Assembly (NCBI GenBank): GCA_903821745.1
Contig: CAIJMI010000004.1
Coordinates: 152,404 to 216,403 of the forward strand
Direction: 5' to 3'
DNA from: Candidatus Gottesmanbacteria bacterium
GTDB taxonomy: Bacteria; Patescibacteriota; Microgenomatia; UBA10105; UBA927
Length of the DNA: 64,000 bases
The notes below the pieces were generated by a model that ran no database searches, had not been told where the DNA came from, and saw only the letters and a list, made by a program, of their open reading frames with translations. The position numbers and the translations under genes were made by a program. Shown one piece after another: positions 5,744-40,357 of the stretch (positions are counted from its first letter, which is position 1; each line of letters opens with the position of its first letter).

Positions 5744-5945
5744 GCATAAGCAAATAGCTATTCTCAGAAGTAAGGAAGTAGATTCGAATTGCGTCACTGA
5801 AAATCAAAAAGATTTCCAGTGTAAACCATTGCGTGGAGCCGGAGTTTTTCGCTTCAAATTATCACAAATGAAGTAACCTCGAAAGGACGTTCGAACCCAA
5901 TGAAAAAAATTTCAATCTTCAGTTGTATTACTCATAGAAAGAGAG

Positions 5946-6326
5946 GTGAATTACATGAATAAAAAAACAATCATTGCATTAAGTATCGCATCTGTTGTTC
6001 TTGGAGGTATTTTTACTTTTCCAAAGATAGCAGAAGCATATAAAGGAAATCCTACAGTCAAAGGACCATATTACACAGAAGAACGTCATGAGGCTATGGA
6101 AAAAGCGTTTGAAACAAAAGATTATAACGCTTGGAAAAACCTTATGCAGGGAAAAGGTCGAGTAACTCAAGTTATCAATCAGGATAATTTTGCGAAATTT
6201 GCCCAAGCACACGAACTTGCTGAAGCAGGAAAACTGGAAGAAGCTGCTGCAATTCGAAAAGAATTAGGATTAGGTTTACATAATGGATCTGGTCAAGGAA
6301 TGGGAATGGGACGATGGAGTAAGTGA
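5946..6326 (+). CDS. Small secreted protein, unknown function
   Basis: N-terminal signal peptide (AEA-YKG) and a Gly-rich C-terminal tail. Likely true ATG at 5955 with an upstream GAGAGG. Confidence 0.5.
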   Translation: MNYMNKKTIIALSIASVVLGGIFTFPKIAEAYKGNPTVKGPYYTEERHEAMEKAFETKDYNAWKNLMQGKGRVTQVINQDNFAKFAQAHELAEAGKLEEAAAIRKELGLGLHNGSGQGMGMGRWSK

Positions 6327-6413
6327 CTTTACTTTATAGGTCACAAACGCTTCCCCGTCAATATGACGGGGTTTGGCGTAGGAAAACCCAGGGAAAGAAA
6401 TATGGAGCGGTAG

Positions 6414-10027: not shown

Positions 10028-10333
10028 ATGTCTAAGAATCCGTTTATTAATGCCTTCAGTGCTGCGATTTATATCATTTTTGTTGTTACCGTTATGACTT
10101 TCGTAACACAACCTTTAAAGACTAAGCCAGATACTTTCTTTGCCCCCATCACATTGTTATCTATGCTTACCCTTTCTGTCACTGTAATGGCATTTTTATT
10201 TTTTTATCAACCCCTCCAACTATTTATTGATGGAAAGAAAAAGGAATCAATTAACCTATTCATTAAGACCGTTGGTGTATTTGCAGCAATTACATTGCTG
10301 ATTTTATTTCTGCTTTTTTTAGGTCTTATTTAA
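10028..10333 (+). CDS. Integral membrane protein, unknown function
   Basis: Three hydrophobic helices. Confidence 0.45.
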   Translation: MSKNPFINAFSAAIYIIFVVTVMTFVTQPLKTKPDTFFAPITLLSMLTLSVTVMAFLFFYQPLQLFIDGKKKESINLFIKTVGVFAAITLLILFLLFLGLI

Positions 10334-10499: not shown

Positions 10500-10928
10500 C
10501 TAATGATATTTTTCTTTAAATTCGTCAAACCAATCAATGGGTGCCTGAGTCTCTGTTTCCCCATTATAATTAACTAGAATTTCTTCGTCTTTTTTAATAT
10601 TGGAGGTTGCTCGATAAATCATGGTTTTTGCTTGGAAGTCTTGTTCCCATGTAGCATTAGGAGTGAATGAATGGTTATATATGGAGCCATATCCTAAAAC
10701 CATGACACCACATCGAGTACTTGTCCATGGATATAAATAATAGGCAAAAATAGTGTGTTCAGAGTGTGTTCGTTCTTTGGGGGAAAGATAGACAACAGGA
10801 GAAGTTTCGATAATTTCTCCCTTTTTAAAATTTTTGGCTGCGAAGACTCCACGCCCTTTGTGTTCAGTGTTTTTTATGACAACTGATGGAGCGAAAATAA
10901 TTGGTAAATGATTAGAGCCAATGGACAT
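10500..10928 (-). CDS. SET-domain protein (putative lysine methyltransferase)
   Basis: GRGVFA...KGE, NHS..PN and EEILVNY signature motifs of the SET domain. Confidence 0.8.
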   Translation of the reverse strand: MSIGSNHLPIIFAPSVVIKNTEHKGRGVFAAKNFKKGEIIETSPVVYLSPKERTHSEHTIFAYYLYPWTSTRCGVMVLGYGSIYNHSFTPNATWEQDFQAKTMIYRATSNIKKDEEILVNYNGETETQAPIDWFDEFKEKYH

Positions 10929-11403
10929 AAGTACAACCTGTTGCTTGTTTCTTTTCTCTATCCCATCCTGCGGTTGAACATTTTTTCATTTTTTTGCCTG
11001 AAACCGTGGTATACAATACTAATTTTGCTCCGCATTCTGGACATTCTTCATCAAGAGGTTCTGTTGTTCCATTAATCCATTCGACATAGTCACATCCTAT
11101 TACCTGTTTTTTTGTTGCATCCCATCCACCGGTTGAACATTTTTTCATCTTTTTTCCGAATCGTGTCATCGTTAGAACAAGTGAAGCGCCGCATTTTGGA
11201 CATGTTTCATCTAACGTTTGTGGCTCAAAAGGAAGCCATAAAACAAAATCGCATCCATCGATTTTTTTTGTTTCAGCATTCCACATCCCCGCGGTGCAGC
11301 GGCGTAATTTTTTACCAGAGCTCGTGATAACAACTTCACCGAGCTTACTTCCACATTTTGGACAAATTTCTTGATTTTCATTTGAGACAGATGGTGTATT
11401 CAT
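10912..11403 (-). CDS. Triple topoisomerase-type C4 zinc-ribbon protein (YrdD-like)
   Basis: Three tandem repeats of about 50 aa, CP(K/E)CG...GKK...C..G.W...K...GC.YV.W, four Cys each (zf-C4_Topoisom-like). 17-nt overlap with the SET gene. Confidence 0.7.
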   Translation of the reverse strand: MNTPSVSNENQEICPKCGSKLGEVVITSSGKKLRRCTAGMWNAETKKIDGCDFVLWLPFEPQTLDETCPKCGASLVLTMTRFGKKMKKCSTGGWDATKKQVIGCDYVEWINGTTEPLDEECPECGAKLVLYTTVSGKKMKKCSTAGWDREKKQATGCTYVHWL

Positions 11404-11496
11404 ATTTTCATACTATAGCACGGATATTTGAAAATATGTATGGAGGAAAATATTTTTCAAGGGAGCTGATATACTTAAATAAGTATTGATCTGCCT

Positions 11497-13344
11497 ATGA
11501 AAATAAATGTTTCCATTATTGCACTGTTAGCGATCTTACTTGTTTTTCAATACGGAAAATTTTTTCCTGAACCTATAATTCATCCGTATCTTCTTGCAAT
11601 TGGAATCCTTGCAACGATTCCAGTATTTTTAAACGCAGTAAAATCAATGCTGCAAAAAAAAATATCTGTTGACCTTCTCGCATCAATTACACTAGTGGTC
11701 TCAATGATCAAAGGAGAATGGGTATCTGTAGGGTTCATTAATCTTATGATTACATCAGCCAGAATTTTTGGAACATATACGGAAGGAAAAGCAAAATCTG
11801 CCATTAAGGGATTGTTAAAACTTCGTCCTGACAATGTACGAATTAAACAAAAAGACGGCATTGTTGTTAGGCACATTAATGAGGTCACCATTGGAGATAT
11901 CGTTGTCGTCGAATCAGGGGAACGTATCCCTATTGATGGGAGTGTTATCCAAGGAGAGGGATCGATTAATCAGTCATCTCTCACAGGTGAATCACTTCCT
12001 ATTGAAAAACATGAAGGGGATACATTGTTAAGTTCAACACTTGTTGAATCAGGAATATTTCTTATCCGTACTGAAAAAATTGGAAAAGATACTACATTCG
12101 AAAAAATAATTGCACTCGTCGAACAGGCACAATCTGGAAAAGGTTTAATACAAACTATGGTAAATACGTTTTCCTCATGGTATATCCTTCTCACATTACT
12201 TGGCTCTTTGTCTCTCTATTTTATTTCTCATGATACTAATCTCGTCCTGAGTGTGCTTTTAGTAACCTGCGCTGATGATATTGCTGTTGCGGTTCCTATG
12301 GCATTTTATGCAGCAATTGCATATGCCGCGAAGCGGGGCATCATTATCAAGGGGGGACAATATTTAGAAGGATTAACACGGGTAAAAATGGTAGTTGTGG
12401 ATAAAACCGGTACATTAACGCGAGGCAATATTGCAGTTAGCAAAGTATATCCGTTCGGGCAATATTCAGAACAACAAGTTGTAAGTTATGCGGCTATCGC
12501 AGCGAGCATGTCACAGCACCCGATTTCGAAAGCTATTCTTTTGTATGCTCAAAAGAAACATATTGAAATTAAACAGCCTGAAATATTTGATGAGCATCCT
12601 GGGAAGGGGGTAATGGCAGTATTTCACCATCAACATATAATAGTTGGAAATAAAAAATTGTTGCTAGATAAGCATATAACTATTTCCTATGAGCAAATGC
12701 AACAATACAATAAAAGTAGTAATGCAGGATATTCTGTGTTATTTGTCGGTTATGATGGAACATGTATTGGAAATATTGTGTTAAGCGATGAGGTTCGTCC
12801 AGAAATTCGGACAACGATTCAATCTTTGAAACATTTTGGTATTCGAAATATTGTTATGTTAACAGGGGATAATGAAAAAGTTGCAAGCCATGTGATGGAA
12901 CAAACAGGAATTACTGCGTATCATGCGAATTTATTACCGGAAGATAAAGTTGCATTTATAAAATCTCATAAAGGGGGACGTCATCTTGTCGCAATGGTTG
13001 GGGATGGTGTAAATGATGCAGCTGCTCTTGCCGCCTCTGATATCGGCATTGCAATGGGAACAATCGGAACTGATGCAGCCATCGAATCTTCAGACATTGC
13101 ACTTATGCATGATAATCTACAAAAAATTCCAGAGGTAATCGCAATTGGTAGACACGTTGTAAAGATTGCTCATCAAAATTTTATTATTTGGGGGGTAGTA
13201 AATTGTATTGGTTTAGTTCTCGTATTTACAAGAGTTATTGGTCCAGCAGAGGCAGCTGCGTTTAATTTTGTGACGGACTTCTTTCCACTGATGAATTCTA
13301 TGCGACTTTTCCGTCGACAGTCTTTTGATCGTGTGATAGGATAA
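11497..13344 (+). CDS. P-type ATPase, minimal P1B-like architecture, specificity unclear
   Basis: TGES actuator, DKTGTLT, GDGVNDAAAL; six TM core. Lacks an N-terminal metal-binding domain. The TM motif reads CADD where CPC is expected. Confidence 0.8.
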   Translation: MKINVSIIALLAILLVFQYGKFFPEPIIHPYLLAIGILATIPVFLNAVKSMLQKKISVDLLASITLVVSMIKGEWVSVGFINLMITSARIFGTYTEGKAKSAIKGLLKLRPDNVRIKQKDGIVVRHINEVTIGDIVVVESGERIPIDGSVIQGEGSINQSSLTGESLPIEKHEGDTLLSSTLVESGIFLIRTEKIGKDTTFEKIIALVEQAQSGKGLIQTMVNTFSSWYILLTLLGSLSLYFISHDTNLVLSVLLVTCADDIAVAVPMAFYAAIAYAAKRGIIIKGGQYLEGLTRVKMVVVDKTGTLTRGNIAVSKVYPFGQYSEQQVVSYAAIAASMSQHPISKAILLYAQKKHIEIKQPEIFDEHPGKGVMAVFHHQHIIVGNKKLLLDKHITISYEQMQQYNKSSNAGYSVLFVGYDGTCIGNIVLSDEVRPEIRTTIQSLKHFGIRNIVMLTGDNEKVASHVMEQTGITAYHANLLPEDKVAFIKSHKGGRHLVAMVGDGVNDAAALAASDIGIAMGTIGTDAAIESSDIALMHDNLQKIPEVIAIGRHVVKIAHQNFIIWGVVNCIGLVLVFTRVIGPAEAAAFNFVTDFFPLMNSMRLFRRQSFDRVIG

Positions 13345-40284: not shown

Positions 40285-40356
40285 GCGCCCGTAGCTCAGC
40301 GGTAGAGCGCATGTCTTATAAACATGAGGTACTTGGATCGTCACCAAGCGGGCGCA
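40285..40356 (+). tRNA. tRNA-Ile (anticodon UAU), 72 nt, no encoded CCA
   Basis: Manual cloverleaf: acceptor GCGCCCG/CGGGCGC, D-arm GCTC-AGCGGTA-GAGC, anticodon stem CATGT/ACATG, loop CTTATAA, T-arm CTTGG-ATCGTCA-CCAAG, discriminator A. Confidence 0.8.
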
Positions 40357-40357
40357 C

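Follow-up and report, generated by a model that had tools for sequence, protein, structure and literature searches.

A SET-domain gene overlaps the end of a zinc-ribbon gene

The window analysed here, a 64,000-nucleotide (nt) stretch of Candidatus Gottesmanbacteria contig CAIJMI010000004.1, encodes on its minus strand a small SET-domain protein (SET) whose gene overlaps the end of a gene for a protein with three topoisomerase-type zinc ribbons (ZnR). Both open reading frames (ORFs) are present in the ORF list of the window at the positions given by a first-pass annotation of this DNA. The ZnR gene (10912..11403, minus strand) encodes 163 residues with three topoisomerase-IA-type Cys4 zinc ribbons; the protein is Lys-rich and is without the acidic C-terminal tail of most of its homologues. 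The SET gene (10500..10928, minus strand) encodes a predicted protein lysine methyltransferase of 142 residues, a minimal SET domain that has neither pre-SET nor post-SET Cys-rich regions. The overlap of 17 nt that the annotation had reported was recovered exactly (10912..10928, minus strand; ATGTCCATTGGCTCTAA): it begins at the SET ATG (10928-10926) and extends through the ZnR stop codon, TAA (10914-10912). The 3′ end of ZnR reads TAT GTC CAT TGG CTC TAA (Y-V-H-W-L-stop), with the SET ATG within the Tyr-Val codons TAT GTC. Upstream of SET codon 76 there is no alternative in-frame ATG, GTG or TTG, and the overlapping ATG is therefore the only sensible start of the gene.

The pair has as its neighbours a convergent gene for a membrane protein (10028-10333, plus strand) and a divergent gene for a P-type ATPase (11497-13344, plus strand), and thus forms an isolated two-gene unit on the minus strand. 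A second same-strand overlap of 17 nt is present elsewhere in the window, between the minus-strand ORFs 45-1112 and 1096-1794 (longest-ORF starts). Base composition across the pair gives no sign of a GC anomaly of the kind that recently acquired foreign DNA would leave. PADLOC gave no match for either protein, and there is thus no evidence for a defence system; NCBIfam assigned neither SET nor ZnR to a specific family, all matches falling far under the cut-off. The source names of close homologues (‘Candidatus Gottesmanbacteria bacterium’, ‘Microgenomates group bacterium’, ‘Patescibacteria group bacterium’) place the window in Patescibacteria/Microgenomates.

SET is a minimal SET domain with intact catalytic motifs

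The SET protein matches the Pfam SET profile PF00856 with an E-value (E) of 9.4e-17 and 61.8 bits (gathering score 22.4), with residues 25-122 aligned to profile positions 1-105 of 105. The first-pass annotation had made its assignment conditional on the catalytic Tyr and the NHS residues, and an alignment of 38 homologues showed these to be present. The S-adenosylmethionine (AdoMet)-binding GxG motif, G25-R-G27 (10848..10856, minus strand), has an invariant G25 and a G27 conserved in at least 90% of the sequences. The NHS motif of the pseudoknot/AdoMet pocket, Y84-N85-H86-S87 (10668..10679, minus strand; codons TAT AAC CAT TCA), is invariant at its first three positions and at least 90% conserved at S87, and N120-Y121-N122 (10563..10571, minus strand), which contains the presumed catalytic Tyr, is invariant. 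E116, in the E-E-(I/L)-x-x-x-Y motif region, is also invariant. Y84-N85-H86-S87 aligns with the NHS/NHD of vSET and Set7, and the region of Y121 with their ‘ISY’.

The best sequence matches in the PDB are Schizosaccharomyces pombe Set7 (5h6z, E 5.7e-19), chlorella-virus vSET (1n3j, E 3.7e-10) and Plasmodium falciparum PFL0690c (4rz0, E 4.5e-08). The AlphaFold2 model of SET has a mean predicted local distance difference test score (pLDDT) of 82.9 and a predicted template modelling (TM) score of 0.74, and a Foldseek search with this model returned 400 PDB matches at E ≤ 1e-3; all 50 of the matches listed are SET proteins. The top fold matches, 5h6z (E 4.9e-11), 4rz0 and 3kma, have Foldseek E-values of 5e-11 to 2e-10 and target-normalised TM-scores of 0.75-0.87. 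Model confidence is low for the first ~14 residues, which vary across homologues, and for the C-terminal ~20 residues (helix 133-140), which are specific to the subfamily. By its sequence the protein is a bare minimal SET domain, with its catalytic motifs intact and without pre-SET or post-SET zinc clusters, and the enzyme should be active. It shares the bare core with Set7, vSET (1n3j/3kma) and PFL0690c; those enzymes methylate eukaryotic histone H3 (K37, K27), whereas the organism of the window is without histones. On all the sequence and fold criteria applied, SET is a member of the SET family, and its place is among the small minimal SETs of prokaryotes, viruses and fungi.

The first-pass annotation calls bacterial SET proteins rare, which goes too far for this family: GTDB species representatives contain at least 589 stretches that code for a relative. 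The relatives are found in Patescibacteria (53-60% identity), Methanosarcina (42-49% over ~120 residues), Bacillaceae/Paenibacillus, Bacteroidota, Acidobacteriota and other groups; a word-index search returned 485 of them, and PF00856 is the only domain in the 120 nearest. SET is thus a member of the Methanosarcina/Bacillus/Patescibacteria family of small SET proteins. Beyond the clade in which SET is linked to ZnR, its closest relatives are other Patescibacteria SETs, up to 65% identical, which argues that the gene came from within the phylum. An apparent SET fusion of 419 residues in locus L020 was rejected as an artefact of masking, a formyltransferase-like ORF being linked to SET across masked letters (XXXX).

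ZnR contains three long-hairpin ribbons related to topoisomerase I

The triple-repeat architecture proposed for ZnR is borne out by alignment of the repeats, which recur with a period of 53 residues. Repeat 1 (C14-L57; 11233..11364, minus strand) has invariant cysteines C14, C17, C36 and C51, repeat 2 (C68-I110; 11074..11202, minus strand) C68, C71, C89 and C104, and repeat 3 (C121-L163; 10915..11043, minus strand) C121, C124, C142 and C157. Pairwise identity is 42% between repeats 1 and 2, 44% between 1 and 3 and 65% between 2 and 3, and each follows the pattern CPxCG-x15/16-C-x14-GC, ending in Y/F-V-x-W-L/I. All 12 cysteines are invariant among 35 homologues (mean column identity 67%). Equally invariant are the GKKMKKCS loop of repeats 2 and 3 and, in every repeat, a pair of tryptophans (W41/W94/W147 and W56/W109/W162), which are joined by a conserved Tyr or Phe in each repeat. 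Of the 163 residues of ZnR, 20 are Lys, and the isoelectric point (pI) is 8.6.

ZnR scores 41.3 bits against the Pfam family Zn_ribbon_Top1 (PF01396, cut-off 32), summed over three stretches, each of which spans just profile positions ~1-20 of 39. Pfam aligns the first half of each repeat because the spacer between the third and fourth Cys is ~14 residues long, and not ~5. The two best Foldseek matches of the AlphaFold2 model of ZnR (pLDDT 83.4) are to Escherichia coli topoisomerase I (4rul, 9gda; probability 0.87-0.89). A hidden Markov model (HMM) of the ZnR family, run against 1.84 billion representatives, matches in one stretch, over two repeats, the C-terminal ~100 residues of four proteins of 650-770 residues (P0270, P0271, P0309, P0323) that are Toprim+Topoisom_bac proteins by Pfam; the match in P0270 lies at residues 660-767 (E 7.7e-17). 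It also matches the C-termini of two ERF single-strand-annealing proteins (P0285 and one more), and Topoisom_bac is present in 9 of the 150 nearest ZnR relatives. Zn_ribbon_Top1 itself misses the ZnR-like C-termini of the topoisomerases P0270, P0309 and P0323 at E ≤ 1e-4, which indicates that the long-hairpin ribbon is a distinct subtype, found in the stand-alone protein and in some topoisomerases. The kinship of these ribbons with topoisomerase, as first proposed, is solid. A PDB sequence match of ZnR to a designed TIM barrel was discarded as spurious and of low complexity. No TopA gene is encoded within the 64-kb window.

ZnR is a very tightly conserved, lineage-restricted Microgenomates protein, among the most conserved of the proteins specific to that lineage. 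The word-index search returned 1969 relatives, the best 120 of which are 67-100% identical; at 50% clustering the full-length family reduces to approximately one representative plus fragments, and 11 HMM matches fall at E ≤ 1e-30. An acidic C-terminal tail of the form ‘...WLKxGE...GEEFLPPEPEE’ is present on ~65 of the 79 homologues that are not linked to SET (among L095-L165, for example L097, L109, L110, L115, L119, L124, L126, L148, L150, L152 and L156), and a subset of the tailed proteins ends in a hydrophobic-Phe tip (EDIF, EEINF, EEIDF, DGIAF, ESLNF). The window copy (end at 10912-10920), every SET-linked copy and a few others (L106, L140, L170, L172) are tail-less and end in ...WL. The acidic C-terminal tip of bacterial single-stranded DNA-binding protein (SSB) is DDDIPF. 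The likeness of the ZnR tail to this tip suggests an SSB-like protein-recruitment peptide on a ribbon-based binder of single-stranded DNA (ssDNA).

In topoisomerase I the ribbons bind ssDNA through aromatic stacking (strand β3; F616/Y728), and the stand-alone protein YrdD binds ssDNA in a zinc-dependent manner (PMC4678816). By analogy with these proteins, binding of ssDNA or other nucleic acid by ZnR is a reasonable proposal, and ZnR would most likely bind single-stranded nucleic acid without sequence specificity. ZnR resembles E. coli topoisomerase I domains D5-D7 and YrdD in its tandem Cys4 ribbons, in passing the PF01396 cut-off and in that its profile finds the C-termini of type IA topoisomerases. 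It differs from both in the spacing of ~14 residues between its third and fourth Cys, against ~5, which accommodates an extra β-hairpin with an invariant G-W-D/N; in the acidic GEEFLPPE tail of most members, which is not known from TopA or YrdD; and in the confinement of the family to one cluster at 50% identity. YrdD, compared here by its description, is reported to have four ribbons, as opposed to three in ZnR. Kinship with the TopA C-terminus, together with the SSB-like tail, suggests a role for ZnR in the DNA transactions of reduced genomes.

The pair is conserved in one clade as a single synteny block

The first-pass annotation had staked its proposal on the two genes being neighbours in relatives, and within one clade they are. 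In all nine retrievable loci of the long SET subfamily (141-152 residues; 68-80% identical to the window SET) the same 163-residue ZnR lies directly upstream in the identical 17-nt register (L081, which is the window contig, L082/L083, L084, L085, L086, L166/L167, L168/L169, L173 and L174). Among these nine pairs SET identity is 65-81% and ZnR identity 83-93%. All nine share a synteny block of Fer4, BacA, Patatin, RNase_H_2 (divergent), ZnR and SET, usually followed by a convergent NUDIX gene. The occurrence of every pair within one inherited block points to one evolutionary event and not to repeated selection for adjacency.

Outside this clade the pairing was not found. A tblastn search with ZnR against the 6-kb flanks of 80 SET loci, with the window as positive control, detected ZnR at none of the 80 loci outside the clade, including ~18 Patescibacteria SETs of the 127-residue type (53-60% identity). 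Conversely, ZnR is without SET in 79 of 80 metagenome loci, 75 of the 80 having at least 450 nt of downstream sequence; the single linked locus, L086, is the closest (84% identity). ZnR has no conserved neighbour, the commonest neighbour family being present in 9 of 84 loci. None of the 150 nearest ZnR representatives contains PF00856, and none of the 120 nearest SETs contains a ribbon domain. Of four signs of an enzyme-substrate pair, we found same-strand operon conservation within the clade, and found neither independent recurrence, nor domain fusion, nor, within flanks of at most 10 kb, co-occurrence; with regard to the last, ZnR is present without SET in L170, L172 and 79 other loci, and SET is present in Methanosarcina, Bacillaceae and other groups without ZnR within 6 kb. 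Distant SET-like ORFs are found in L108 (871-1185) and L155 (7819-8130), with 33% and 27% identity respectively (E ~5e-6), on the strand opposite to ZnR and 2.3-3.8 kb away from it; they are probably unrelated to the overlap arrangement.

SET was probably placed behind an existing ZnR gene and apparently lost in one lineage

Two close relatives of the clade are without SET in the same slot. L172, whose ZnR is 83% identical, carries Patatin, RNase_H_2, P-type ATPase and ZnR, followed by a convergent NUDIX gene 28 nt on. L170 shares the upstream block; its ZnR, 80% identical, is tail-less, and an unrelated convergent gene lies downstream. Neither locus shows any similarity to SET within 4 kb at E ≤ 10. 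The 3′ end of the L170 ZnR carries ATGTCCAATGGCTCTAA although the locus is without SET, which argues that Tyr-Val codons already in place supplied the start codon of SET; the variable first ~14 residues of SET are a by-product of this junction.

The P-type ATPase encodes 615 residues (E1-E2_ATPase + HAD; no N-terminal metal-binding domain by Pfam) and is inserted between RNase_H_2 and ZnR. This insertion is found only in the window (11497-13344, plus strand), L172 (1503-3353) and L174 (586-2433), and is absent from L082, L084, L085, L166, L168 and L170. Since it is common to the window and L174, which have SET, and to L172, which does not, loss of SET in the L172 lineage is the more economical explanation, and the insertion is a useful marker of the sub-lineage in which SET has apparently been lost.

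Nearly all of the 16 clade-specific ZnR positions are also found in the SET-less L170 and L172, and only N2 and T97 separate seven linked ZnRs from the two SET-less ones (E97). A residue signature of SET linkage was rejected, as position 97 is Ala in the SET-linked P0122/L173.

Transcription and translation of the two genes

Upstream of the pair, in the 93-nt divergent intergenic region, there is a single sigma-70-like promoter match (TTGAAA-16/18-CATATT/TATTTT; 11431..11460, minus strand), which is a match to consensus only. The number of such matches equals the shuffled expectation, so that this site counts for little as evidence of a promoter. No intrinsic-terminator-like site or unusually stable structure was detected 3′ of SET (z = -0.8). 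The absence of intergenic DNA, the position of the only promoter-like match 5′ of ZnR and the lack of a terminator between the genes argue for co-transcription. SET would then be transcribed from the ZnR promoter, without intergenic space or a start region of its own.

A Shine-Dalgarno-like AGGT lies 8-11 nt before the SET ATG (10936..10939, minus strand), within invariant Thr-Gly-Cys codons of ZnR, and could serve in SET initiation; it is AGGA or AGGG in relatives. The placement of this AGG(T/A/G) fits termination-reinitiation coupling, in which SET would probably be translated by ribosomes terminating at, or re-initiating near, the ZnR stop codon.

SET as a proposed accessory methyltransferase co-expressed with ZnR

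SET is a further predicted minimal prokaryotic SET methyltransferase, found in a putative lineage-specific operon with a conserved, uncharacterised ribbon protein. The explanation that we favour, with confidence that is evenly balanced, is that it is an accessory methyltransferase co-expressed with ZnR and not demonstrably dedicated to it. The locus would be a lineage-specific two-gene operon of a Gottesmanbacteria-like Patescibacterium, in which an accessory SET was placed once, directly behind a conserved stand-alone ZnR, and SET would act in trans, methylating lysines in at least one abundant basic protein that binds nucleic acid. Coupling would ensure co-expression and is no proof that the two are enzyme and substrate; ZnR functions in almost all lineages in the absence of SET, SET can be lost, and nothing in the comparative data singles out ZnR as the substrate. 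The step taken in the first-pass annotation from the overlap to a ‘partner or substrate’ is thus unsupported, given a single evolutionary event, the near absence of the pairing at the other SET and ZnR loci, the SET-less L172 and L170 and the lack of a consistent ZnR residue. If the pairing is operon hitch-hiking, it is an ordinary lineage-specific gene arrangement.

The class of target is suggested by the few prokaryotic precedents. Endogenous substrates of prokaryotic SET proteins are known in only a couple of cases, MC1-α and Hc1. Go1-SET of Methanosarcina mazei methylates the DNA-binding chromatin protein MC1-α (Manzur and Zhou, 2005, reviewed in PMC3980110). Compared through the Methanosarcina homologues, Go1-SET belongs to the same family of stand-alone SET proteins of ~125-145 residues with the same motifs, and the presumed endogenous target of the window SET is likewise a small basic DNA-binding protein; the 13 Methanosarcina SET loci examined adjoin a permease and a membrane protein and not a DNA-binding protein, whereas the window SET overlaps the gene of its candidate target. 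Of the SET proteins of Chlamydia, cpnSET interacts with Hc1 and Hc2 and has Hc1, a histone-like protein, as its methylation substrate, and NUE is secreted as an effector (PMC3980110, PMC2904774). These are again bacterial SET enzymes, with a Lys-rich nucleoid protein as target; unlike the window SET, however, the chlamydial proteins are longer and type III-secreted, and the candidate target in the window is a zinc-ribbon protein and not H1-like. No sequence match of the window SET to cpnSET/NUE was seen. Literature searches for Patescibacteria SET proteins and for the ZnR ribbon family returned no paper.

Several points weigh against the accessory-methyltransferase explanation. Of the 49 same-strand neighbour pairs in the window, 13 overlap (longest-ORF starts); such overlaps are frequent enough here to make that between ZnR and SET, taken alone, weak evidence. 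Translational coupling, although probable, is judged from the geometry of the overlap, and small basic nucleic-acid-binding proteins are to be expected as the target class by analogy alone. The neighbours of SET differ in other Patescibacteria (epmA-efp, TIGR04272) and might point to other targets. The 17-nt overlap has never drifted apart in the clade despite a SET identity of ~65-81%, which could reflect selection for coupling or for stoichiometry with ZnR and would favour a dedicated pair.

A dedicated enzyme-substrate or partner pair, which we consider possible but doubtful, is the strongest of the alternatives. In this arrangement SET would methylate ZnR lysines (for example those of the GKK(L/M)(R/K)(R/K)C loops, or K98/K99) and so tune nucleic-acid binding, and the overlap would serve joint production. 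The overlap is strict in 9/9 loci while the downstream neighbours vary (NUDIX, Crp, P-type ATPase, unknown), the Lys-rich, basic composition of ZnR would suit a methylation target, and the characterised prokaryotic SETs target small DNA-binding proteins (PMC3980110). A small zinc-ribbon, RGG/K-rich protein of the TIGR04272 family encoded on the same strand downstream of SET in 8 of ~18 other Patescibacteria loci hints at a recurring theme of SET beside a small basic zinc-ribbon protein. An Acidobacteriota ORF (L068) has an N-terminal CxxC..CxxC ribbon before SET. Set against this, all of the pairs stem from one event in one synteny block; ZnR is within 6 kb at 0/80 other SET loci and SET is present at 1/80 ZnR loci; neither domain is found among the nearest relatives of the other; L172 and L170 have the same slot without SET and an unchanged ZnR; and T97 and N2 alone distinguish linked from SET-less proteins, with position 97 itself varying among the linked ones. 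With its probable co-expression, its 20 Lys and its invariant GKKMKKC loops ZnR is the best single candidate for a SET substrate, a claim that we make tentatively; by analogy with Go1-SET/MC1-α and cpnSET/Hc1 such a role as partner or substrate is possible (PMC3980110).

A more specific proposal, which we regard as unlikely, is that ZnR is a Microgenomates-specific ssDNA or nucleoid protein, which in most lineages bears an acidic tail like that of SSB, and that its lysines are methylated in this clade by the SET of the operon. If true, this would be a bacterial operon-encoded module of writer plus chromatin protein, and the first prokaryotic SET genetically coupled to an endogenous substrate. 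A SET gene overlapping a gene for a Lys-rich, topoisomerase-type protein predicted to bind nucleic acid is in any case a concrete candidate pair. Both proteins are small and soluble-looking, which makes the pair cheap to test, and close relatives without SET in the same slot provide natural controls.

It is improbable, in our judgement, that the adjacency is functionally meaningless and that SET merely uses the ZnR promoter while modifying a translation or housekeeping protein such as elongation factor P (EF-P) or a ribosomal protein. An orthologous SET adjoins, in divergent orientation, the EF-P lysine-modification pair epmA-efp in six Patescibacteria loci, the SET neighbourhoods vary by phylum (an amino-acid permease in Methanosarcina, a 360-residue protein in Bacillaceae), and overlaps are frequent in this genome. 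Against such a target, the only biochemically characterised endogenous substrates of these SETs are DNA-binding proteins (PMC3980110). The epmA-efp linkage, moreover, is limited to one related set of loci (SETs 66-85% identical), and the genes there are divergent and not co-transcribed.

An attached life on host cells is widely assumed for Patescibacteria. That SET is an exported effector acting on host-cell proteins of a presumed episymbiont, like chlamydial NUE or Legionella RomA/LegAS4, is very improbable: SET proteins of pathogens are secreted effectors (PMC3980110, PMC2904774) and there is a very weak, local NCBIfam similarity to AnkI/LegAS4 (18 bits, cut-off 550), but the protein is a bare 142-residue SET domain whose variable N-terminal 14 residues were created by the overlap, no secretion genes are adjacent, and homologues are common in free-living Bacillaceae, Paenibacillus and Methanosarcina.

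Other SET neighbourhoods and further features of the window

The TIGR04272 protein (‘CxxC-x17-CxxC’; 70 bits, cut-off 36) has an RGG-rich N-terminus and a Lys-rich C-terminus, and its gene lies 40 nt to 3.1 kb downstream of SET in the eight loci mentioned above. It follows SET directly in L001 (6434-6931), L013 (6425-6889) and L016 (4049-4534), lies 2-3 kb on in L002, L005, L012, L014 and L015, and is also found in L018; neither the window nor any of the ZnR loci carries it. The SETs linked to it are 66-85% identical, and the linkage may again be clade synteny. The genes epmA (EF-P lysine aminoacylase, 307 bits) and efp (195-198 bits) lie upstream of SET on the opposite strand in L001, L003, L013, L014, L015 and L016. 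Their position beside a lysine methyltransferase could be coincidence or a hint at another target.

Tandem SET genes occur in L012 (2551-2931 and 2941-3537). The second encodes 198 residues with a PF00856 score of 73 bits, a weak match to the PRDM2 PR domain and a Cys-rich, post-SET-like region (CNPCTHVCRCRSESC), and is only ~28-31% identical to the small SETs. In L068, from an Acidobacteriota metagenome-assembled genome, the longest ORF (5821-6372; putative start codon) has a CxxC-x12-CxxC ribbon directly before SET; this ribbon is not of the topoisomerase type and scores 24.6 bits against Zn_Ribbon_1, just short of the cut-off of 25.

We found no literature on tRNA-Ile with a UAU anticodon in Patescibacteria. 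Most bacteria read AUA by a lysidine-modified CAU tRNA, which makes a tRNA-Ile with UAU uncommon. The window encodes a single tRNA, a tRNA-Ile with the anticodon TAT (40285-40357, plus strand).

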